Assembly: GCA_038736825.1 (NCBI GenBank)
Contig: JAVYME010000016.1
Coordinates: 1 to 26,320, forward strand
Reading direction: 5' to 3'
DNA from: Candidatus Iainarchaeum sp.
GTDB lineage: Archaea; Iainarchaeota; Iainarchaeia; Iainarchaeales; DTGL01
DNA: 26,320 bases
Below the pieces are notes generated by a model, which saw nothing but the letters and a program-made list of their open reading frames with translations, made no database searches and was not told where the DNA came from. How positions within the stretch are numbered: the first letter of the stretch is position 1; each line of letters begins with the position of its first letter. The translations under genes were made by a program, and so were the position numbers. Positions 1-18,984 of this stretch are shown piece by piece.

Positions 1-1399
1 AGGCTTTTCTGATGCGGTTTTTTGCTTTTTCTGTTTTTGCTATGGCAAGCCATGAGCGCTTGCACTGTGGTTTTTTTGCCAAGCGGACTTCCACTATGTC
101 TCCGCTTTCCAGCTTTCGGTGCATTGGAGCGTTTTTTCCATTCACAATTGCGCTCAAAAATTTGTCGCCTATGTCTGAGTGTATTGCGTATGCAAAGTCT
201 AGGGCGGTTGCGCCTTCTGGAAGGGTGATTATTTCTTTTTTTGGGGTTAAAACGAATATTTCTGGTTCTCCAAAGACTAGTTTGAGGGAGCGCATTGTTT
301 CGCTTGTCTTTTTTATTTTTCTCTGCCATTCTATGAATTGTTTTACCCATGACAGTTTTTGGTCGAAATCTTGGTCTTTTTCTATTTGTTTGTAGCGCCA
401 GTGTGCTGCCAGCCCTTCTTCTGCATTGCGGTGCATTTCCATTGTGCGAATTTGCACTTCTGCTTTGCGTCCATGCCAGTCTATGACTGTGTGGATTGAC
501 TGGTAATTGTTTTTTTTGGGGTTTGCTATGTAGTCATCATATTCCCCTAATGGTTTGAATTTTAAGTGGACTAATCCGGCGGCACGATAGCAGTCTTCTA
601 CAGTGTTGCATATTATTCTTGCTCCGTAAAGGTCCCCTATTTCTCCAAATTTTTTGCCTTGAACAAACATTTTCCGGTAAATGCTGTTAAAGTTTTTTGC
701 TCTTGCTGAAACGCTTGCACTGATTTTTTCATTTTCAAGGAGTTTGGTGAGTTCCAGTTCAAGCTTTTTGGCGTTCAGTTCTCTTTGCGCTCTTTTTTCA
801 CCAACAAGCGACTTTATTTTTTCGTATTCTTTTGGCTTAAAGTATTTTAGGGCTAAATCCTGCAATTCCCATTCCATTTCATAGAGCCCCAGCTTGTGGG
901 CTATTGGGGCATAAACATCTCGGACAAGTTCTGCTAACGCGTTTTGTTTCTCTGCTGGGCGCTGGTCTATTTTTCTCATTTTGTCAAGCTGTGAGGCAAT
1001 CTCTACAAACAGGCTTCTGAAGTCCTTTGCTATTCCCATTATGACCTTGGATAGCTGTTGGTTTTCCAGTTCTCCATAATTGTTGTTTTTTACGCTTTTA
1101 AGCCTTGCAATGTCGTCCACGAGCCCAGTGATTTCTGAGCCAAGTTCCCTTTCCATTTGTGTTTTTTTTTCTGGAGTGTCAAAAAGGATTTCGTGAGCCA
1201 GAGCGGCTGCAATTGTGCTTGCATCAAATCCAAGTTTTGCAAGTATGAATGCTGTGTTTGCTTGGTGTTCTTGTTGTTCTCTGTTTTTGCTGTGCTGCAA
1301 AGAGAACTTGAATGCTTTTTCCACTAATGCAAAATCGCTTTTATTTAAGTGTTTGCATTGCGCTTTAAGTTCAGTGAACGACTGGTTTTTGTATTGCAT
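1..1399 (-). CDS. Long RelA/SpoT homologue (RSH), (p)ppGpp synthetase; N-terminal 466 aa visible (degenerate HD domain + synthetase domain + TGS domain); 3' part runs off the left window edge
   Basis: Absent from the ORF track because it has no stop in the window. The minus strand from ATG 1399-1397 is open to position 1; I checked every codon for stops. Translation starts MQYKNQSFTELKAQCKHLNKSDFALVEKAF. Synthetase motifs: RAKNFNSIYRKM, GDLYGARIIC, EYDDYIANPKKNNYQSIHTVI, EVQIRTMEMHRNAEEGLAAHWRYK. TGS motif: IFVLTPKKEIITLPEGATALDFAYAIHSDIGDKFLSAIVNGK. The HD region reads LAHEILFDT where canonical enzymes have LLHDxxEDT. Confidence 0.88.
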   Translation of the reverse strand, partial: MQYKNQSFTELKAQCKHLNKSDFALVEKAFKFSLQHSKNREQQEHQANTAFILAKLGFDASTIAAALAHEILFDTPEKKTQMERELGSEITGLVDDIARLKSVKNNNYGELENQQLSKVIMGIAKDFRSLFVEIASQLDKMRKIDQRPAEKQNALAELVRDVYAPIAHKLGLYEMEWELQDLALKYFKPKEYEKIKSLVGEKRAQRELNAKKLELELTKLLENEKISASVSARAKNFNSIYRKMFVQGKKFGEIGDLYGARIICNTVEDCYRAAGLVHLKFKPLGEYDDYIANPKKNNYQSIHTVIDWHGRKAEVQIRTMEMHRNAEEGLAAHWRYKQIEKDQDFDQKLSWVKQFIEWQRKIKKTSETMRSLKLVFGEPEIFVLTPKKEIITLPEGATALDFAYAIHSDIGDKFLSAIVNGKNAPMHRKLESGDIVEVRLAKKPQCKRSWLAIAKTEKAKNRIRKA

Positions 1400-1422
1400 A
1401 ATAATATTTTTGCTGGAAGTTG

Positions 1423-1434
1423 AATAAATATATG
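1423..1434 (-). promoter_or_regulatory. Putative TATA box for the RSH gene (minus-strand CATATATTTATT, about 25-35 nt upstream of the ATG; short or no leader)
   Basis: A/T-rich TATA-like element at archaeal promoter distance in the 139-nt divergent intergenic region. Confidence 0.35.
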
Positions 1435-1484
1435 CTTTCCTTGCAAGTCCTGAAATCCTTTTAACAGGCTGACTAAGGTTATGG

Positions 1485-1494
1485 CTTTAAATTG
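1485..1494 (+). promoter_or_regulatory. Putative TATA box for the tpiA operon (CTTTAAATTG), followed by the SD-like GGAGGT at 1527-1532
   Basis: TATA-like element about 49 nt upstream of ATG 1539. GGAGGT lies 6 nt before the start codon. Confidence 0.35.
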
Positions 1495-1538
1495 TTTTTT
1501 GGTATTATTCTTTCACTGCTGTTTTTGGAGGTATTCCA

Positions 1539-2213
1539 ATGAAGTTTCCGATTCTATTCATTAACTTTAAGTGCTATGAAGAGGCAACAGACAAAAAAGC
1601 AGTTGCTTTGGCAAAAAAAGCAGCATTTGCATCAAAAAAAACAAATTCAACGGTTGCCTTGGTGGTTCAAGCAACAGACATCAGGCTAGTGTCAAGCACA
1701 GTCACAATTCCAGTTTTTGCACAACACTTGGATCCAATAGAATACGGTTCTCACACAGGCCACATACTTCCTGAAGCAGTAAGGGCTGCTGGAGCCAAAG
1801 GCACTGTTTTGAATCACGCTGAAAACAAGCAAGAGAATTCTTTTCTGGAAAAGGCAATAGTTCGAGCTCACTCTGTTGGTCTTAAGGCAATGGTTTGCGC
1901 TGAAAGCACAGAGCGAGCGAGAGCGATTGCTGCCTTTTCTGAAAAACCGGATTTTATTGCAATAGAGCCCCCAGAACTAATAGGCGGCGACATTTCAGTT
2001 TCAACAGCCAAGCCAAGCCTTATAACTGACACCGTAATAGAGGTTAAAAAAATTGCACCAATTCCAGTAATAACTGGTGCTGGAATAAAGAATTCAGAAG
2101 ATGTCAGGATTGCCCTTGAACTTGGAACAAGCGGGGTTTTTGTTGCTTCAGGCATTGTCAAGGCGTCAGACCAAAAAAAGGCGATTTTAGAGTTGTTAAA
2201 GGGATTCAAATAG
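1539..2213 (+). CDS. tpiA: Triosephosphate isomerase, short archaeal type (224 aa)
   Basis: FINFKCYEE N-terminus, LNHAENK, IAIEPPELIGG and TGAGI motifs. The ~225 aa length is typical of archaeal TIM. Confidence 0.92.
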   Translation: MKFPILFINFKCYEEATDKKAVALAKKAAFASKKTNSTVALVVQATDIRLVSSTVTIPVFAQHLDPIEYGSHTGHILPEAVRAAGAKGTVLNHAENKQENSFLEKAIVRAHSVGLKAMVCAESTERARAIAAFSEKPDFIAIEPPELIGGDISVSTAKPSLITDTVIEVKKIAPIPVITGAGIKNSEDVRIALELGTSGVFVASGIVKASDQKKAILELLKGFK

Positions 2214-2245
2214 TTTTTTTGTTTAATTTGGGAAGGTGTTTTGTG

Positions 2246-3400
2246 ATGGAGCGCACAAGCGTTGAAGAAATAATGGATTCAAATTTTTTAAAGATTGGTG
2301 CAGAAGAGCGGGTTTCAAAGCTTTTCGGGCTTTTGAGTTCTGCCAAAAAACACCACGCGGTTGTGTTTGATTCCAACGGCGAATATGTTGGAATCACTTC
2401 TACAAGGGAAATGCTTCGCAGGCAAGCGGATTTTTCTCAAATGAAGGTAAGAAGCATTACGGACGAGAACAGGCCGCGCTTGACTAGGGACATGTCTTTA
2501 ATGAAAGCAGCTGAGTTAATGTATGTTTCAGACAGCCGCATTCTGCCAGTTATCGAGGAAAACAAAGTTTTTGGCGTTGTTTCAGCCAATGCAATAATCA
2601 AACAGGCTGCAGAGCGTTCACCGATTGCTTCAAAGAGAGCTAGAGATATTGCTTCAAAAAACCCAGTGGTTTTAAAGCAAACCGAATCAATTGGCAAGGC
2701 AATAACTTTAATGCGCGATAAAAACATAAAACGAGTGTTGGTGTCAGACAAAAAAGGCAATATTGTTGGCATTCTTTCATTACAGGAATTGATTGAAAAG
2801 CACTTGGTTCACGCCACTAGTGAACGGCTTCCCTTTGTTTCTGGCGCCAGAGGGCATTCCTCTGAAAGGGCTACTGCCTTAAAAATGCCGATTTCCAGTG
2901 AAATGTCCTCTTTTTTCATCACAGTCAAGCCAGACCAAAGAGTGGGGGCACTCCTTTCCGATATTGAGGGCGGCCGTGCCATAGTGCTTGTTGAAAAGGG
3001 CAAAGCAGTTGGAATTATCACCAGAAGAGATCTCTTGGAAGCCATTGTGAAGACTGGGGCTGTTGAGAGAAACATTCAGGTAGCCAATGTGCCAGCCCTA
3101 GATGAAATTGACAAGGCAAAAGTGGATAGCACAATCAATGCCTCTTATGACAGAGTCAAGAAAACGCTTGGAATGCCTTACTTTCTTTTAGTGCATTTCA
3201 AACAACATAAAGAGGCCGGTGCAAGAGTGAAGCACTCTGTTCATATTCGGGCTTCTGCTCCTGGAATGAATTTTAAGGCTGAAGCAACTTCTTGGAATGT
3301 GATCACCTCTTTACAGGATGCCTTAAGCGAGATTGAGAGGGAGATAAGGAAAGCCATTGGCAAAAAGCGCAAGAGTTTTAGAAAGGCAAGAGCCAAGTAA
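2246..3400 (+). CDS. Four-CBS-domain protein with a C-terminal HPF/RaiA (ribosome hibernation factor, S30AE)-like domain (384 aa from ATG 2246; the ORF opens at TTG 2219)
   Basis: Four CBS-like repeats, e.g. VVFDSNGEYVGITSTREML, LPVIEENKVFGVVSANAII, VLVSDKKGNIVGILSLQELI, VLVEKGKAVGIITRRDLL. The C-terminus (nt 3071-3397) has a beta-alpha-beta-beta-beta-alpha pattern resembling E. coli HPF: NIQVANV..DEIDKAKVDSTINASYDRVKK..YFLLVHFKQHK..KHSVHIRASAPG..NFKAEATSWN..VITSLQDALSEIEREIRKAIGKKRK. Confidence 0.8.
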   Translation: MERTSVEEIMDSNFLKIGAEERVSKLFGLLSSAKKHHAVVFDSNGEYVGITSTREMLRRQADFSQMKVRSITDENRPRLTRDMSLMKAAELMYVSDSRILPVIEENKVFGVVSANAIIKQAAERSPIASKRARDIASKNPVVLKQTESIGKAITLMRDKNIKRVLVSDKKGNIVGILSLQELIEKHLVHATSERLPFVSGARGHSSERATALKMPISSEMSSFFITVKPDQRVGALLSDIEGGRAIVLVEKGKAVGIITRRDLLEAIVKTGAVERNIQVANVPALDEIDKAKVDSTINASYDRVKKTLGMPYFLLVHFKQHKEAGARVKHSVHIRASAPGMNFKAEATSWNVITSLQDALSEIEREIRKAIGKKRKSFRKARAK

Positions 3401-3465: not shown

Positions 3466-3740
3466 GTGTGGGCGCGCCAAGGAATCGATTCTGCTTAAAA
3501 GGACAGAGTGGCCCACTGCATTCCTCGCTTCCGTTTCCCTCAAAGCATTTCACTTAAAGGCCACCGTTGCTTTCTTCCGAACCTGGCGGGTTCACCCTTA
3601 AGCAAAACCTAAGAGGACAGAAGTTCCTTGTAGTGCAATGGCTCCGGCCTTCCAAGCGAAAACCTTTCCCAAGGCTTCAGCTCCAGCGTGAAGCGGATTT
3701 CCGGTTACAGGGAACCGCTGCCTCCCCAGCCTAGCCCACA
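3466..3740 (-). ncRNA. Signal recognition particle RNA (archaeal 7S RNA, ~275 nt; ends approximate)
   Basis: The minus strand begins GUGGGCUAGGCUGGGGAGGCAGCGGUUCCCUGUAACCGGAAAUCCGC (archaeal Alu-domain-like 5' end). It contains the helix-8 signature GGGUGAACCCGCCAGGUUCGGAAGAAAGCAACGGUGGCC (plus coordinates 3559-3597). The 3' end GCGCGCCCACAC pairs with the 5' GUGGGC and is followed by UUUUU. This is a GC-rich island in an AT-rich context. Confidence 0.9.
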
Positions 3741-3760
3741 AATAATTTAGGGCGAGAGAA

Positions 3761-6554: not shown

Positions 6555-9500
6555 TTAATCTTTGCTTTTGTCTTTCACGTCTTCAATTCCCTTTTCAGTC
6601 ACTTGGTATAATGCTTCGCCGTCTGGAAGGCTTGGAGAGTCCACCAGTTTTGCTATTCTTTTTTCACCCTTGCTTTTCCTCAAGTACAAGCGAGTTTTGC
6701 TGTTGTGTACAACGAAACCATTCGCAATGTAGTTTTCTGTCAGAGGAACGCTCAAATCGTAAAGTGGCTGGTTATTTGTCATTTTTCTGATGGTTCTCAC
6801 TTTTTCAAATTTTACCTCTCCGTGGAGAATTGCCATTAAAAACTCTTTTTTATTTTTTAAGCTGTCTTCCTTTATTTCCTTGCCTTCGAGGGCTAGGGCT
6901 ATTTTTTCACCCTCTTGCAGGGTTATGTGCCTGTAATTTCGATAAGGAATTGGTTTTTTCTCTTTCTCGAAGGTTTTTGCTAAGAATTGCCATACCGCGC
7001 TTCTCTCCATTGGAATTATCCTTTTAGCTCTCTCTGGTTTGAAAGTGCAAATCCATTTTTGCAGTTTCTGGTTTTTGTCTGGAGCGCTCACCCCTATTAA
7101 TTCTCCATATTTAACAACGTTTTCGCTGAACAAGTCAAGCGAGTATGCTGGCTTGTTGTATCTAGTGAGCCTGGAACCAATTCCGAACCGCAATAATAGC
7201 AATTGAATAAATTGTAATATTTTTTTGTCGTTTTGGGCTATTGTTATCCTTCTTATCTTGCTGTCAATTGAACCTTCAGCGTCAACAAATCCTTTTATGA
7301 AGGCTTTCACTGTATCATCTTCTGATTTTGGCACAAGAACGACATAGTTTTTTTTAATCCATTGCATTAACTCCGTGATTTCCCTGCTGTTTATTCTCAT
7401 CCTAAAAGCATTTTTGCCATTGATTTTTGAAATTCGGCAATCACAGTTGAAAACTATCTTGAAGAGTTTTTGGTATTCTTTGAGCACTTCTTCTCTTGAG
7501 TCCTTGAATTCAATGTTCCTTTTTCCAATAAAACCGTCGCCAAGCATATAACCCGTTATTTGAGCAAGTTCTTTGGTGAAGAATTCTGGCATTCTCAGCA
7601 CCTTGTGTTTGTTTGAAGCGAGTGGCATGATGTTTTCCAAAATTTCTTCGCTTTGGCTCAATTCAGCGATCTTTTCCAGATTGCTTTTTGCTGTAGGACA
7701 ACCTTGATTCAAAACCCGCCTGAGCTGTCTTGGGGTTATGTCAAGGCAATGGCAGATTTCACCCCGGGTTTGTCCAATTTGGTTTAGGCATTGCTTGACT
7801 AGTTGGGCTCCATTTTTGCTGACCATTACAATTTGCACTGGCTCTTTGGCAGGTATTTTTTGGAGGGTGCCAAGCACTCGTATGCTGCCAGCATGCATCA
7901 AATAATCCCCTTTCCTTATTTGGCTGGCTTTAACTTCTTTAAGGCCAAATTTGCAGAGTTTGAAGAACCTGTGTTCTGGTGAAACAGTTATCTGGTGCCC
8001 GGTATCAATTTCATATACTGTTTTTATGTCATGTCTGACAGACCTTTGCATGGCCTGAGCGTTTACTATTTGCAGTTTATTTCTGTTGTCGACTGCTAAA
8101 AGGTTCCATTCGCTTAATTCTGCTATTGCCTGTATTGCGCCGCTGTTTGTTTGGACAAGGCTGTCGCCTGCAAGGCAAGCGTGTCCCACGATGTTGCCTC
8201 CAACTGGCGCTGTTGGGTCTCCAAACAAAATATCCGGTCTTTCCATTACTTGGTTTGTGACTAGGACAACCACGTTGTACATTTCCGCTATTTTCATTAG
8301 TTGTCGCATGTGTTTGTTGAGTTTTTGTTGTCTTTCAGCGAGTAAACCCCGCCCTATGTATTCTGACCTGAATTGTGAGGTGAGCGAGTCAACTATTACC
8401 AGTTTTATGTTTTTTTCTTTTATGATGTTTTCTGCTTTTTCAGCTAAAAGCATTTGGTGGTCTGCATTGTATGCTCTTGCCACATAAATGTTTTTTAGTG
8501 CTTTTTCTGGGTCAAGCCCTTTGGCTTTGGCTATTGCCATTATTCTTTCAGGCCTAAAGCTTGATTCTGAATCTATGTATAGCACGTTTCCGTTCAAGCC
8601 GCCTTTTTCTGGCGGAAGCTGTGCCATAACACACATTTGGAAGCACCATTGAGTGTTGTGTAGGAATATTGGCTTGTTGCCGCCTATAAAACTGTGTGTT
8701 TTTGGCACTACAAGGTCATACACCCAGTCATTGTATTGAATTTCTTTTTTTGTTGTGATTTTTTCCCATTGTATTTGTCCGTTTGCTAGGGTGATGAGAG
8801 TGTTTAAGTCTTTTTTGAGTTCTTTGTCTTCAAGCAGGCCATCTGTTTCTTTTTTTAGAACTGTGGCAATCTTTTCTGCAGTTGCACTTGACATGTGCCT
8901 TGTTATATAGTTTTGGAATGTTGATCTCTTTAGGCAGAGTTTTTCCCTGATTTCTGTTGTGCGAATTGGCATTACTGAGAGTGCTTTCATGACTTTACTG
9001 GGTGTTGGGTTTTCAAGCAGCCTTCTGGCTTCTTTTATTTCTCTTATTCTGGTTTTAAAGAATCCAAGCATGTCATTGAGGGTTTTTTCTGTCACGCGTT
9101 CCATGTGTGGGTGTTTTCCAATAAAGGTTACAAATGGGTTTTTGTAGCCTTTTTTGTACATGGCTTGCTTGCTCCACTTGTTGAAGTGCCTTCTTGAACC
9201 GCTTAGTTTTGAGTAAATGCGCCTGTAAAGTGGTTCAATGACTTTGATTGGAATGCAATATTTTGTTGAAAAATTTTTTTCTCCCGCTATTTTTTGGTTT
9301 TTTATGGTTTCACTCATTATTTTTTCTATTTTTTTCTTAGATTCAGTGTCTGTTATGTAAAGCACATAGTATTTTTTGCCTTGAGCGATTTTTTCTCTTA
9401 AAGTGACTTGAATGCCTAGGATTGCAAACAGGTATCCAAGTTGTTCGCTGAGCTTTTTTGATTTTGTGCACATGGAAACTGTCTTTGATATGTGTCCATC

Positions 9501-10526
9501 GCCTTCTAGATAGCCTTTCAAGAATGCTTCAATTGTGGCTTTTTGGCTTTGCATTATTTCTTCTGGGACAAATTTGTTGCCAGCAGTGCAATGTGCCAGT
9601 TCTTTAAGAAACTCTCTTGTCGGCTTTTTTAGTATTATTAGTCCTTTTTTCTTTACAAGCCTTGGCTTATACTTGAATTTTTTTTCAATGTAAGTCAAAA
9701 CTGTTTTCTGGATTTTTTCATTGTAATTTGTAATGCTCAACGGGTTTCCACAACCTTCTGCGACAAACAAGCCTAAAAAGTAGGCATCTTGTTTATCAAT
9801 CGTGTGCGAGCTTGGCGTTCTAATTATTTTTGGTGTTCCAATAAAGTCGCCTTCTTTAAGGAGCTCGGTGGATTTCCATTGGATTCCGTTTTCTGTCAAT
9901 GTTAGGAGGGGGTGAAAGCCAGTTAGTTTTATTATGCCGCCCCTTTCTGTTTCAATAAGTTGCAGGGTTTCCACTTTTTCTTTATACAGGTATTGTGCAT
10001 GGCTTTTCTCTATTTTTCCATACTTATTTATTCCAATTACTTTTACGGGTTTTTTCAGTTCAGCAATATAGCCGGAATCGAATTTTCTTTCGTTTACTGC
10101 ATACTTTTTGTAAAAATCCTCAATGGGTTCAAGGTGTGGTTTGTTAGGGTTCAAGTAGAATATGTTGGTGTCGCCTGAAATGCATTTCCCGCTCGCCATC
10201 TTGCCGTACACTTCTGTAATGCTTTGGGTTTCAAGTCCTCCGCCAAGCAATTCATCTAATTCTTTGCTGCCAGTGCGTATGCGCCCGATTTTTTCTCTTC
10301 TTTTTTGGATTGAATCTGCTGTTTCAAAGCCCATTTCGAGTGCATCCCTTGCTGCTTTTATTGCTTTTTCTGCTGTTTTTTCTCCAATTCCAGCCACTTC
10401 TGTTAATTCCATTGGGGATGCTACTGCAATGCTTTCAATGCTTCGATAGTTTGCTTTGAATAGTTTTTCTGCGGCTTGCGGGCCTATTCCGGGTAAATCG
10501 CTAACTTCTTTTATTTCTCCAGCCAT
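6555..10526 (-). CDS. radA: DNA repair and recombination protein RadA precursor with two inteins (1323 aa; predicted spliced RadA 321 aa)
   Basis: N-terminal HhH ([12 protein letters not shown]). Walker A GKMASGK|T is interrupted after the Lys. Walker B LVIVDS. C-terminal [26 protein letters not shown]. Extein segments are aa 1-114, 625-783 and 1276-1323. Confidence 0.95.
6702..8177 (-). mobile_element. RadA intein 2 (492 aa, aa 784-1275) with LAGLIDADG homing endonuclease; inserted at GGNIVGHA|SKTRLYL
   Basis: Block A CLAGDSLV. Block [20 protein letters not shown] motifs [12 protein letters not shown] and [13 protein letters not shown]. Terminal [21 protein letters not shown] followed by +1 Ser. 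Confidence 0.9.
8655..10184 (-). mobile_element. RadA intein 1 (510 aa, aa 115-624) with LAGLIDADG homing endonuclease; inserted in the ATPase P-loop (GKMASGK|TQ)
   Basis: Block [12 protein letters not shown]. Block [19 protein letters not shown] motifs [13 protein letters not shown] and [13 protein letters not shown]. Terminal [23 protein letters not shown] followed by +1 Thr. Confidence 0.9.
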
Positions 10527-13551: not shown

Positions 13552-14196
13552 ATGAGATTGCCATTGTTCAACAGGCTGAAAAATCGCTTGCACAAGGATA
13601 CAGCCCTCTTACAGGACGAGATTGTGGATATTGTCTATTCGGTTGAGCCATCAGCGGTTTTACATGGCGGTACCGCTGTCTGGCGCTGTTATTCAAGCAA
13701 TCGCTTTTCTGAAGACTTGGATTTTTACCTTGGCTCAGGAAAGGCCTTCAAGGAAAAATTTTTGCCCGTTATTGAATCCCGCAATCTCTCGTTGCAAAAA
13801 TTCAAGCAAACAAAGACAACAATTTTTTCCAAAATTGCAATTGGCAATGCTGAAGTTCGGTTTGAGGCAGCACTGAGAAAACCCGATAAAATTGTTGTTG
13901 CAAGCTATGAAAAGGTTGATGGAACCTTTTTGAGTATTTTCACGCTTGCACCTGAAGATTTGTTGCTTGAAAAAATTTCTGCGTTTGAAAACAGGCGTTT
14001 GGCTCGCGACCTTTATGATATTGTTTCCCTGCTTCCATTTGTGAGGGATGAAACTGCAGTTAAAAGCAAAGCACTTGCCTTTGTTGAGTCTGCCGAAAAG
14101 CCTGTTGATGAAAAGGCGTTAAAGGCACTGGTTTTTTCTGGTGCAATTCCATCTTTTGAACAGGCTATTGCCATTATAAAGAGGCGGTTCAAGTGA
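13552..14196 (+). CDS. Nucleotidyltransferase, AbiEii/AbiGii toxin family (DUF1814/COG2253-like), short form (214 aa)
   Basis: Pol-beta NTase motif LHGGTAVWRCYSSNRFSEDLDFYL. C-terminal family motif RRLARDLYDIVSLL. Confidence 0.8.
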   Translation: MRLPLFNRLKNRLHKDTALLQDEIVDIVYSVEPSAVLHGGTAVWRCYSSNRFSEDLDFYLGSGKAFKEKFLPVIESRNLSLQKFKQTKTTIFSKIAIGNAEVRFEAALRKPDKIVVASYEKVDGTFLSIFTLAPEDLLLEKISAFENRRLARDLYDIVSLLPFVRDETAVKSKALAFVESAEKPVDEKALKALVFSGAIPSFEQAIAIIKRRFK

Positions 14197-14777
14197 AATA
14201 TGCTTTAACTGTGAGGGAGCATTTTTCAAAGCAAGCGGTTTTCAGCGTTCGCGACATTTCAATCTTTTTTTCAACTAGAGGGATTTCCAAAGGGTATGCG
14301 CGTCTTTTTCTTCATAATCTTTTGAAAAAAGGCGAAATAGTTCGTATTTCCAGGGGTGTTTATTCTTTTGAAAGGGATTCCTTGCTTTGGGGGTTTGCTT
14401 TCTCGCCTTTCTATTATGGGTTGCAGCAAGCCCTTTCTTTGCAGAATTTGTGGGAGCAAGAGAGCATTCCAGTGATAATTACACCGCGCAAAATCCGAAC
14501 TGGTTTGAGAGAGATTGGCAGCGAGAGAATTCTTGTAAGGCGGATTGACAGAAAGCTTTTCTTTGGCTTTGAAATGCTGCCTTATTATGGTCGCTTTGTT
14601 CCTGTTTCGTGCCTTGAAAAAACCCTTTTAGATTTTTTTTATTTTAGGGAGCCATTGCCAAAAAACACATTGAAGGGTTTATTGCAAAAGGCGGACAGAA
14701 AAAATTTGAATTCTTTGCTTAAAAAATACCCTGTCCATTTCAGGAAATCATTTGAAAAGAAAATTGCAAGTGTTTAG
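14193..14777 (+). CDS. AbiEi-like antitoxin / wHTH transcriptional regulator (COG5340-like), 194 aa
   Basis: N-terminal wHTH FSVRDISIFF..GYARLFLHNLLKKGEIVRISRGVYSF. C-terminal VPVSCLEKTLLDFFYF. The GTG start overlaps the upstream TGA (GTGA). Confidence 0.72.
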   Translation: MKYALTVREHFSKQAVFSVRDISIFFSTRGISKGYARLFLHNLLKKGEIVRISRGVYSFERDSLLWGFAFSPFYYGLQQALSLQNLWEQESIPVIITPRKIRTGLREIGSERILVRRIDRKLFFGFEMLPYYGRFVPVSCLEKTLLDFFYFREPLPKNTLKGLLQKADRKNLNSLLKKYPVHFRKSFEKKIASV

Positions 14778-17040: not shown

Positions 17041-18984
17041 GTGGAATTAATTGGCTGGGAAGTGGAAGCAATGGGTTTGGCTGAGTGGAGCGAGCAAAAG
17101 GGCTTTTTTGCAAAAAGCACTCCAAAAAAAGCTGCCACCACTGATTCTGAAGCAGAATGGAATAAAATTGAACAGGCTCTTTTGCGAAGGAAAGAGCAAG
17201 CCAATTCAATGGAAGAACCAGACAGCGCGCTTATTTCTCTCATAAACCAGCTTGATTCAGAAATAAAATCCAAAAGGCAGGGAACTGCCAGCGAGCAGTC
17301 GTTGCAGCATTCCAAAGAATTGCTGGAAATGATTGATGAGCGCTTGCATGGCACAGCCTGGCCTGTAAAGGAATTGCAAAAAAAATTAAAGAAGCCGGCT
17401 TTGAGTGAAATGGAGGAAATTGTTCCTGTGGCTGAAAAAAAACCGGAGGAAACCAAAATGGGCTCAAGTTTTGATGTCAAAAAAGAAGAGGAAAGCATAA
17501 GGGCTGCCATGGAGGCAAAATTGAAGGCAGCCGAGCAAGAGCAAGCAAAACAGTCAAGCAAGACTGCAATCGAGCAACCTTCAAATATTGAAACCCATAA
17601 AAGCAATGCTTCAATTGTTGAGGATGACTTGTTTGAACCTGAAGAGCCTCCAAAGGATGCTCCGGAACCATTAGATGAAGCAGAAACAGAGGTTTTCGAA
17701 GAAGAATTTGAAGAAGTGGAGGAAAAGCCAGAGGAAAAGCCAAAACCTGAAAAAAAAGAAAAAAGAGAGGAAAAGCCAAAAAAAGAAACCTTGCGAGATT
17801 TCAAGGGCAAAATAGATGTTGAAAAAGCAGAATTTCTTTACAAAGCCTCAGTAAACCAATTGCTTAAAGCACAACTAGAAAATGGGGCAATTATTCCAAC
17901 AACAAGCGAGAAAAGCTATTTGAATGTTTATCCGCGCGATCTAGCCTTTTGCGCTCTAGCACTTGTAAAAGCTGAAAGGTTTGATGAAGCCAAAAAGGCT
18001 TTAGAGTTTGCCTTTAAATACCAAGACAGAAAAACAGGCAGTTTTCCGCAAAGATGGGATGAGGCTGGCAACAATACTGGGTATAAGCCAGTGCAGCCTG
18101 ATGCTGCTGCCTTAGTTCTTTATGCTTTTGCAGAATATGTTTTGGACAAAAACAACACTGATTTTGCAGAAATGAATTGGGACAGAATTGAGAAAACAGT
18201 TGATTTCTTGAATTCAAAAATTGTTTCTGAAAAAGACTTGGTTTTTGCTCCATCCTCAATCCATGAATTTCCTCCAATGGAGCAAGGGTACGAGATTTGG
18301 GCAAACGCAACCTGTTGTGCAGCATTCAAAAACCTTTCCAGGGTTGCAGAAAAAATAAGGGTTGACTATGCTCCGCTCAGCAAAGAGAATGTCTTAAAGG
18401 ACGCCATCCTGCAATACATGTGGAATTCCAGAAAACAGTGCTTTGTGAAAGCAATAAGGATTGGCGAGTCAAGCTCAGTAATGCTTTGGCCTGATGCCTC
18501 TCCCTTAGCACTGTCCTTTTTTGATGTTTTTCCCACAAACGACAAAAAAATGGCTTCAACAGTCAAACTAATTGAGGAAAAACTGTGGCATAAATCCTTT
18601 GGGGGAATTTCCAAGTTTGGCTTTGTTGAAGGCATAGAGAAAGGCGGCTTTGGAGCAAGCCCATTCTTCACACTCTTGTTGTCAGACTATTTCATTAAAA
18701 CAGGGGACAGAGAAAAAGCCGAAAAGTTTTTGGGCTGGGTGATAAGCATTGGCCAGTCAGGCTCTCTCCCAGAACACATTGCCACCAAAGAAGACTTTGA
18801 AGCATTTGCATCAGATTTCAGTGATGCTGGTCTTCTAAATCGGAACACAATGAAGCAAATAAATGCTGCAAGGGAAAGCCAAGAATTCAAGCAAGGAGTT
18901 GCCCGCATAACCGAGCCATTTTCAATGGCGCACGCAGCATTCATAATTGTTTGGAAAAACTATAAGGAAAAATTCCTAAAGTGA
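17041..18984 (+). CDS. Glycoside hydrolase family 15 (glucoamylase/glucodextranase-like) with a ~250-aa acidic, K/E-rich disordered N-terminal extension
   Basis: The C-terminal ~385 aa has (alpha/alpha)6 GH15-like motifs: ENGAIIPTTSEKSYLNVYPRDLAFCALAL, PVQPDAAALVLYAF, YEIWANATC, GGISKF, SLPEHI. The ORF opens at GTG 17041; ATG 17071 (MGLAEW) is an equally plausible start. Confidence 0.78.
   Translation: MELIGWEVEAMGLAEWSEQKGFFAKSTPKKAATTDSEAEWNKIEQALLRRKEQANSMEEPDSALISLINQLDSEIKSKRQGTASEQSLQHSKELLEMIDERLHGTAWPVKELQKKLKKPALSEMEEIVPVAEKKPEETKMGSSFDVKKEEESIRAAMEAKLKAAEQEQAKQSSKTAIEQPSNIETHKSNASIVEDDLFEPEEPPKDAPEPLDEAETEVFEEEFEEVEEKPEEKPKPEKKEKREEKPKKETLRDFKGKIDVEKAEFLYKASVNQLLKAQLENGAIIPTTSEKSYLNVYPRDLAFCALALVKAERFDEAKKALEFAFKYQDRKTGSFPQRWDEAGNNTGYKPVQPDAAALVLYAFAEYVLDKNNTDFAEMNWDRIEKTVDFLNSKIVSEKDLVFAPSSIHEFPPMEQGYEIWANATCCAAFKNLSRVAEKIRVDYAPLSKENVLKDAILQYMWNSRKQCFVKAIRIGESSSVMLWPDASPLALSFFDVFPTNDKKMASTVKLIEEKLWHKSFGGISKFGFVEGIEKGGFGASPFFTLLLSDYFIKTGDREKAEKFLGWVISIGQSGSLPEHIATKEDFEAFASDFSDAGLLNRNTMKQINAARESQEFKQGVARITEPFSMAHAAFIIVWKNYKEKFLK

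Follow-up and report, generated by a model that had tools for sequence, protein, structure and literature searches.

A hydrolase-degenerate long RelA/SpoT homolog, probably synthetase-only, in archaea of the Diapherotrites lineage

(p)ppGpp signaling is a central stress system of bacteria. Here we describe a gene for a long RelA/SpoT homolog (RSH) that lies at the left edge of a 26,320-nt archaeal contig (JAVYME010000016.1; the whole of this stretch is called the window below) and compare it with the RSH systems described so far. Long RSHs were reported to be lacking in archaea by Atkinson et al. 2011 (PMC3153485), and no archaeon has ever been observed to contain (p)ppGpp (PMC8646023). In a survey by Li et al. 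2021, the share of genomes with RelA/SpoT was 69.0% in Diapherotrites, 41.7% in Woesearchaeota, 21.3% in Pacearchaeota, and 19.0% in Nanoarchaeota, and the authors inferred that the DPANN genes were acquired from Bacteria (PMC8407392), so that a preliminary description of the window, which had called such enzymes rare in Archaea, is outdated for this phylum. Bifunctional Rel/SpoT enzymes carry an RxKD motif, of which the ExDD form is a charge reversal (Sajish et al. 2009, PMC2666561). The presence of an RSH in Diapherotrites is not new, and the gene described here is native to the archaeon, not recently borrowed. The reading we favor, to which we assign a probability of roughly 0.7, is that the window RSH is a monofunctional long RSH with synthetase activity only ([hS] type) and that it is native to a Diapherotrites/Iainarchaeum-group DPANN archaeon.

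Translation of the minus strand gave a frame that opens with an ATG at 1399-1397 and runs stop-free for 466 codons to the window edge. Its product is an exact match to NCBI entry MEM0360374.1, [quoted passage not shown] which derives from a contig of the same 26,320 nt. The preliminary description had placed HD, RelA_SpoT, and TGS domains on this edge ORF, over positions 1 to 1399; the gene is real and a Pfam search recovers the three domains, while the coding part is corrected to 2-1399, with the protein continuing beyond the window. Because HD_4, RelA_SpoT, and TGS all score far above their Pfam gathering scores, a chance match is ruled out, and the HD_4 fold, the synthetase domain with its catalytic residues, and a TGS domain after the catalytic half are arranged as in long RSHs. 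The solved structures nearest the fragment are those of Bacillus subtilis Rel (6yxa, 1.3e-101), mycobacterial Rel (8fr8, 2.2e-99), and E. coli RelA (5iqr, 6.6e-79). Its closest full-length homolog, P0002, is a 620-amino-acid (aa) protein from a 'Candidatus Iainarchaeum' metagenome-assembled genome (MAG) of Lake Pavin, and residues 1-466 of this protein align to the fragment without gaps at 80% identity. Across the whole gene the comparison with P0002 gave pN 0.12 at nonsynonymous and pS 0.74 at synonymous sites, that is, purifying selection with saturated synonymous sites, from which we conclude that the RSH is a working gene. A pseudogene was ruled out by the open frame, a dN/dS of ~0.04, and the intact synthetase residues. 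The translation contains the strings YQSIHT, EVQIRTMEMHRNAEEGLAAHWRYK, EYDD preceding YIANPK, LAHEILFDT, and QHSKNRE.

To map the catalytic residues, the fragment was aligned with 120 homologs and with E. coli RelA and SpoT, using the numbering of RelSeq/B. subtilis Rel checked against the 6yxa alignment. At H53, H77, D78, E81, D82, D144, H147, and N148, all active-type sequences read HHDEDDHN, whereas the window RSH reads HHEFDSDK: H53, H77, and D82 are kept, and D78E, E81F, D144S, H147D, and N148K are changed. The Mn2+ ligands and catalytic ED dyad of bifunctional Rel/SpoT (H53, H77, D78, E81, D82, and D144) are thus incomplete, through D78E, E81F, and D144S. In addition, the R44-Y50 "RxSGEPY" substrate-binding loop has been lost through a deletion of 6 residues that leaves H53 in place, as seen by comparison with E. 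coli SpoT, Bacillota Rel, the hydrolase-intact archaeal RSHs, and B. subtilis Rel. Loss of the HDxxED catalytic set is a mark of the monofunctional RelA subfamily of beta- and gammaproteobacteria, and the substitutions together with the loop deletion bear out the earlier observation that the hydrolase signature is degraded. Unlike its hydrolase-intact relatives, the window RSH gave no Pfam match to PF01966 (HD). Among the related sequences that share this degeneracy, the HD residues invariant in active enzymes are nearly all changed and variable. Mean pairwise identity within this group falls to 0.40 for HD, compared to 0.60-0.65 in hydrolase-intact groups, while the synthetase (SYNTH) domain stays at 0.59 (0.62-0.72 in the intact groups) and TGS at 0.58 (0.66-0.69); constraint is relaxed specifically on HD. 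A profile of the pseudo-HD domain searched against a set of 5.8 billion proteins returned only 13 fragments, mostly bacterial.

The synthetase site presents the opposite picture. R241, K243, K251, D264 (nt 632-634), Y308, H312, and E323 (nt 458-460) are all intact in the window RSH and are conserved in 27 of 27 related metagenomic genes. The intact synthetase motifs of the preliminary description therefore stand at residue level, with 7 of 7 catalytic positions unsubstituted. Its further point, that EYDD marks a monofunctional RelA, holds in part. The acidic ExDD does replace RxKD, as in the RelA subfamily (PMC2666561); as a clean marker of monofunctionality it fails a census of the motif. Within the degenerate clade, ExDD is confined to the Iainarchaeum subgroup and a few further members, and KFYD, KFED, SFDD, HFDD, and similar forms are found in the remainder; among 27 further metagenomic pseudo-hydrolase genes RxKD was found in none, xxDD in 15, and strict ExDD in 6. 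Conversely, P0060, a hydrolase-intact archaeal RSH, carries EFDD. ExDD as a sufficient marker was thereby ruled out, by members with a dead site that lack it and by an intact member that has it, and we take loss of the basic motif as a trend that accompanies hydrolase loss, not as a rule.

Phylogenetic placement was assessed with a neighbor-joining tree (100 bootstraps; 117 sequences and 466 columns, drawn from the 120 best hits). The 31 hydrolase-degenerate sequences all fall into a single clade (bootstrap support, 100%), under the labels Diapherotrites, Iainarchaeum, Micrarchaeota, and "archaeon." All short archaeal forms, degenerate and hydrolase-intact, group at 74%, and E. coli RelA, SpoT, and Bacillota Rel fall outside this grouping. 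Against the RelA equivalog model NF008124 (cutoff, 728 bits), the window RSH scored 298 bits and P0002 scored 337. Descent from proteobacterial RelA was ruled out by the tree and these scores, and the window RSH is not a RelA ortholog. The RelA-like, synthetase-only signature noticed earlier is therefore present as a set of features but does not reflect kinship to RelA; because the degenerate clade groups with hydrolase-intact archaeal RSHs and not with E. coli RelA, these features are convergent. The general model TIGR00691 (spoT_relA; cutoff, 499.2 bits) gave 444.9 bits for the window fragment and 493.4 for P0002, 6 bits short, compared to 636.6 for hydrolase-intact P0026. This narrow miss by P0002 probably accounts for the public name "HD domain-containing protein," and the clade is probably undercounted in annotation-based surveys. 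Public names for proteins such as the window RSH and P0002 are "HD domain-containing protein," "TGS domain-containing protein," or "ACT domain-containing protein." A separate observation concerns one short RSH with a truncated alpha-helical (AH) domain at locus L014 (P0082, DASPMU010000034.1), which is labeled "Alphaproteobacteria bacterium," clusters with Woesearchaeota sequences, and has UPF0113, TruD, and adenylate kinase genes among its neighbors; the bin label may be wrong.

The rest of the protein lies outside the window. When the last 170 aa of P0002 were used as the query, P0132 (MEM0360229.1) was recovered. This partial protein of 148 aa is encoded on a Diapherotrites contig of 29.1 kb and aligns to P0002 residues 473-620, whereas the window RSH ends at the equivalent of residue 466. 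The two accessions lie 145 apart. Very probably, the rest of the gene sits on a different contig of the MAG to which the window belongs, P0132 and the window RSH being the two halves of one ~620-aa gene that was interrupted where a contig ends, with some six codons absent between them. The C-terminal region that the preliminary description had hoped to recover is presumably this fragment, in which both the RIS zinc-finger motif (CCNPLPGE...H...C) and an ACT domain are found. P0002 likewise has the long-RSH RIS motif (CCxPxPGD...H...C), with C496, C497, H518, and C522 invariant, and a C-terminal ACT_4 match (5.6e-09). The full protein is one of ~620 aa with a pseudo-HD domain, SYNTH, TGS, a one-helix AH remnant, the RIS zinc finger, and ACT.

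The full AH domain that separates TGS from RIS in long RSHs is not present. A gap of ~90 residues covers most of it in the alignment of archaeal forms, and Pfam RelA_AH_RIS (PF19296), which matches E. coli RelA, SpoT, and Bacillota Rel, had no match in P0002, P0026, P0041, or P0060. The distance from the TGS "IHS/T" to the RIS "CC" is 83-89 residues in the degenerate clade, with a median of 97 in other archaeal forms, compared to 165-184 in bacterial proteins; overall length is 605-650 aa in the archaeal forms and 720-750 aa in bacterial Rel. In an AlphaFold model of P0002 (pLDDT 86, pTM 0.82), a helix at 457-467 and a disordered stretch at 473-487 occupy the place of the AH domain. The top Protein Data Bank matches of this model were ribosome-bound RelA (5iqr), B. 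subtilis Rel (6yxa), and full-length SpoT (7qpr), and its modeled N-terminal region superposes on Thermus thermophilus Rel with a TM score of 0.84. By alignment, the TGS histidine equivalent to H432 of E. coli RelA is intact in the window RSH.

The contig belongs to a 'Candidatus Diapherotrites' (Iainarchaeum-like) MAG. Other genes on it are archaeal, namely RadA with inteins, RPA, GGGP synthase, S19e, L31e, eIF6, prefoldin, FtsY, and a short, archaeal-size triosephosphate isomerase (TIM); together with an archaeal signal recognition particle (SRP) RNA, which the ORF-based description had lacked, these markers confirm the archaeal surroundings first noted from the sequence. GC content is 0.413 for the RSH gene and 0.406 for the window, so no compositional anomaly was seen. 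The TIM gene (tpiA) is divergent from the RSH gene, and this arrangement recurs in loci L001, L012, L015, L016, L017, L018, and L019 and in 12 metagenomic loci. In the source MAG of P0002, the RSH gene sits between divergent TIM-CBS genes and those for a KaiC-like ATPase, SerRS, Trm56, and TFIIE-alpha. The order TIM, divergent RSH, then KaiC-like ATPase is common to seven independent assemblies whose RSHs range from ~42% to 80% identity, down to L015, a Micrarchaeota-like locus with an RSH 42% identical to the window protein. The conserved locus is flanked by archaeal genes, including RadA, RPA, PcrB, Trm56, TFIIE-alpha, and class I LysRS. A chimeric join between RSH and tpiA, which the preliminary description had raised as a concern, was ruled out by this synteny; because the same order recurs in seven assemblies, the junction is an old, conserved feature. 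A scan of genome contigs with P0002 returned only the source MAG, a single near relative from Iainarchaeum, and four bacteria.

The downstream neighbor in these loci is a single-domain KaiC-family ATPase of ~246 aa, with Pyrococcus horikoshii PH0186 as its nearest structure (1.1e-69). Every pseudo-hydrolase RSH examined has this gene directly downstream on the same strand and TIM divergently upstream. A metagenome scan with the KaiC-like protein yielded 80 loci, and 32 of these have an RSH gene immediately upstream in the same orientation, with a spacing of usually 49-214 nt. The HD region could be read in 27 of these 32 RSHs: none had an intact hydrolase set, and all kept the synthetase residues. 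Among the KaiC-like loci with enough upstream sequence, 21 had neither an RSH nor a TIM gene. Hydrolase-intact archaeal RSHs occur at unrelated loci, with neither TIM nor a KaiC-like partner.

This pairing may bear on how the synthetase is controlled. It could be a synthetase that is free of ribosome and uncharged-tRNA control and answers to other inputs, such as the KaiC-like ATPase or a metabolite bound to ACT, and so would act as an archaeal signaling module and not as a classical stringent factor. We consider this unlikely, if still a credible alternative. It draws on the absence of ~90 aa of the AH domain, on the RSH and KaiC-like pair in seven assemblies and 32 metagenomic loci, always with a pseudo-hydrolase HD where that could be read, and on hydrolase-intact archaeal RSHs residing at loci that lack the partner. 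However, the TGS domain with its CCA-sensing His, the RIS motif, and ACT are conserved, and these are the tRNA- and ribosome-contacting parts in bacteria; the adjacency could simply mean that small genomes keep their gene order, as CBS, SerRS, Trm56, and TFIIE-alpha genes are also conserved there, and KaiC-like homologs stand without an RSH at 21 loci. A related, more speculative and rather doubtful proposal is that the pseudo-hydrolase RSH and its KaiC-like neighbor together make up a conserved archaeal signaling module of two genes, in which a bacterial-origin, tRNA/ribosome-sensing synthetase would be wired to KaiC-type regulation and the alarmone removed by a non-RSH enzyme (e.g., Nudix) or not at all. 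If so, this DPANN lineage would have a stringent-like response unlike the bacterial RelA/SpoT circuit, and the pair would offer the first concrete system that could be cloned to test (p)ppGpp signaling in Archaea.

Returning to the synthetase-only enzyme that we favor, the following course of events would fit the data. An RSH of bacterial origin probably entered DPANN archaea long ago, an age suggested by the lack of compositional anomaly and by synonymous sites saturated relative to close relatives. It would then have lost ~90 aa of the AH domain, and the lineage leading to the archaea labeled Diapherotrites and Micrarchaeota would have lost hydrolase activity and RxKD, in parallel with proteobacterial RelA. 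The window RSH most likely transfers pyrophosphate from ATP to GDP/GTP, giving (p)ppGpp, and the retained pseudo-HD domain is probably a structural or allosteric module, as in RelA. TGS, with its tRNA-CCA-sensing His, RIS, and ACT suggest control by uncharged tRNA and/or the ribosome, which is the least secure step. Removal of the alarmone would need another enzyme encoded elsewhere, such as a second RSH, a small alarmone hydrolase, or a Nudix enzyme. In L019, a Diapherotrites MAG, Nudix genes are found at 1490-2005 (-) and 2059-2532 (+), 2.5-3.5 kb upstream of the pseudo-hydrolase RSH; these two genes, seen in L019 only and of no specific family assignment, are possible candidate alarmone degraders.

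Several points weigh against this account. To our knowledge, there is no biochemistry for any archaeal long RSH. The AH bridge that links TGS and RIS on the bacterial ribosome is nearly absent and the ribosome is archaeal, which leaves RelA-style activation uncertain. The pseudo-HD domain is well conserved in the closest relatives, which suggests some retained function; H53, H77, and D78E are plausible binders at 3 of 4 metal-ligand positions and D82 is kept, so that residual or altered hydrolase chemistry is possible. The neighbor-joining tree of 120 best hits cannot name a donor and supports a single origin of the archaeal forms moderately (74%). Finally, the assignment of P0132 rests on complementary partial ends and nearby accession numbers, without an assembled join.

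The state of the HD site also decides how much weight to give a bifunctional enzyme, in which a remodeled pocket (H, H, E, and D with the clade-typical S/D/K) would hydrolyze (p)ppGpp by a variant mechanism and make a separate hydrolase unnecessary. We regard this as quite improbable. H53, H77, and D82 are kept and D78E is conservative, the pattern HHE[FY]xSDK recurs in the ~17 nearest clade members, and between close relatives the domain is under purifying selection (pN 0.11, pS 0.69). Yet Phe or Tyr stands in place of catalytic E81, Ser replaces the metal ligand D144, Lys replaces N148, and the R44-Y50 loop is deleted; in the wider clade the same positions are variable or wholly lost (e.g., NFP--LCR, AALSEEVR, and ELQKKGIE), and a fall in HD identity to 0.40, with the other domains holding, is what the loss of an activity looks like, as it does in RelA.

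Two further explanations can be treated briefly. A different product of SYNTH, either (pp)pApp or pyrophosphorylated tRNA as with some toxic small alarmone synthetases, is very improbable: RSH synthetase domains are known to have diverged in this way and the CapRel tRNA pyrophosphokinase is among the distant structural matches, but that match is weak (TM 0.17-0.29), all long-RSH (p)ppGpp synthetase residues are kept, including the guanine-stacking Tyr of YQSIHT, and the nearest matches, in sequence as in structure, are genuine (p)ppGpp synthetases. That the gene is bacterial sequence introduced by misassembly or misbinning, or a very recent transfer from a RelA-bearing proteobacterium, can practically be dismissed: although the family is overwhelmingly bacterial and ExDD with a dead hydrolase is a hallmark of proteobacterial RelA (PMC2666561, PMC3153485), the TIM, RSH, and KaiC-like order stands amid archaeal genes in seven independent assemblies, gene GC equals contig GC, the clade lies apart from E. 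coli RelA and at 298 against 728 bits on the RelA model, and an archaeal SRP RNA is 2 kb away.

Table 1. Coordinates of the RSH gene, its domains and motifs, and other features (window positions unless a locus is named)
Feature	Position (nt)	Strand	Basis and remarks
RSH coding sequence, fragment: N-terminal 466 aa of a ~620-aa long RSH	2-1399	-	Translation; C terminus past window edge
Pseudo-hydrolase HD_4 domain, aa 25-172	884-1327	-	Pfam, E = 6.7e-26
SKNREQQEH, aa 37-45, site of 6-residue deletion	1265-1291	-	L-INS-i and HMMER alignments
HEILFD replacing HDxxED: H77 and D82 kept, D78E, E81F	1178-1195	-	Alignments
IASQLDK replacing LADRLHN: D144S (metal ligand), H147D, N148K	980-1000	-	Alignments
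RelA_SpoT (p)ppGpp synthetase domain, aa 233-338	386-703	-	Pfam, E = 2.1e-35
EYDD, aa 286-289, at RxKD position of bifunctional Rel/SpoT	533-544	-	Alignments
TGS domain, aa 381-438	86-259	-	Pfam, E = 1.8e-19; includes conserved His of "AIHSD"
Lone remaining AH helix RSWLAIAKTEKAKNRIRKA	2-58	-	Alignment; contig end here
Divergent intergenic region, RSH gene/tpiA	1400-1538	.	Sequence
A/T-rich TATA-like element ATATATTTATT	1423-1433	-	~30 nt upstream of RSH ATG
Triosephosphate isomerase, 224 aa, archaeal size, divergent neighbor of RSH gene	1539-2213	+	Pfam TIM, 7.4e-33
Archaeal SRP RNA	3466-3741	-	Rfam RF01857, 140 bits, full length; 2 kb from RSH gene
RadA gene	6555-10526	-	
AbiEii toxin/AbiEi antitoxin pair	13552-14777	+	
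647-aa ORF	17041-18984	+	
KaiC-like ATPase, beyond window's left edge	L001 11930-12670; L012 11919-12659; L015 8892-9635; L016-L019; 32 of L020-L099	Same strand as RSH	

Other features of the window are listed in Table 1. The TATA-like element ahead of the RSH gene might serve as an archaeal promoter giving a near-leaderless mRNA. The RadA gene encodes 1323 aa, with a Rad51 domain in three stretches that intein splicing, LAGLIDADG, and homing-endonuclease domains separate, implying two inteins; the orthologs that occupy this position in L012, L016, L017, and L018 have no intein and are 314-317 aa long. The AbiEii/AbiEi pair lies between the GGGP synthase (PcrB) and epimerase genes and looks like a local insertion, since these two genes adjoin in the related L012. 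The 647-aa ORF resembles glycoside-hydrolase-like domains (MGH1-like, GDE_C) only below threshold. No tRNA genes were found in the window.

In the literature searched, neither the pseudo-hydrolase clade nor the AH truncation nor the KaiC-like pairing was described, no paper dissected the RelA/SpoT genes counted in DPANN genomes, and the supplements of the 2019 RSH reclassification preprint contain no DPANN names. What the comparison adds is that a hydrolase-dead, AH-truncated RSH has been inherited vertically in one large DPANN lineage, which is a second independent origin of the RelA-type design, and that public annotation hides this enzyme as "HD domain-containing protein." If the enzyme is active, it raises the questions of how a bacterial ribosome sensor would work on an archaeal ribosome, which target the alarmone would have in a cell without bacterial RNA polymerase, and what degrades it. 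The host archaea are uncultured; the questions of mechanism are approachable with recombinant protein.

Among the described systems, E. coli RelA (5iqr, 5kps) is the best structural match of full-length P0002, and it shares with the window RSH the domain order, a dead HD kept as a pseudo-domain, an intact synthetase, ExDD, and the TGS His. It differs in belonging to a separate, non-orthologous clade, in a full AH domain (TGS-to-RIS distance of 178 residues, compared to 83-89 in the window clade), in an HD site degenerate at other residues (RFPDAEAH versus HHEFDSDK), and in acting with a bacterial ribosome where the host of the window RSH has an archaeal one. The bifunctional Rel proteins of Bacillota and Actinobacteria (B. 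subtilis Rel 6yxa and RelSeq 1vj7) have the same catalytic synthetase residues, and 6yxa shows the top sequence similarity of any solved protein (33-34% identity in structural alignment); they have HHDEDDHN, the RxSGEPY loop, and RxKD and hydrolyze (p)ppGpp, whereas the window RSH lacks all three features as well as ~90 aa of the AH domain. Small alarmone synthetases (RelQ/RelP/YjbM) share the synthetase-only output and a homologous SYNTH fold but are single-domain proteins that lack the pseudo-HD, TGS, RIS, and ACT domains; the window RSH, with HD_4 and TGS in the window and RIS and ACT in the rest of the gene, is not a lone SYNTH domain of this kind. The hydrolase-intact short DPANN RSHs (P0026, P0052, and P0060, with Woesearchaeota/Nanoarchaeia labels) share the archaeal context, the AH truncation, and the 74% grouping; they differ in keeping HHDEDDHN and mostly RxKD, in passing TIGR00691 (636 bits), and in lying at other loci, and they are the genes counted as RelA/SpoT in DPANN genomes by PMC8407392.

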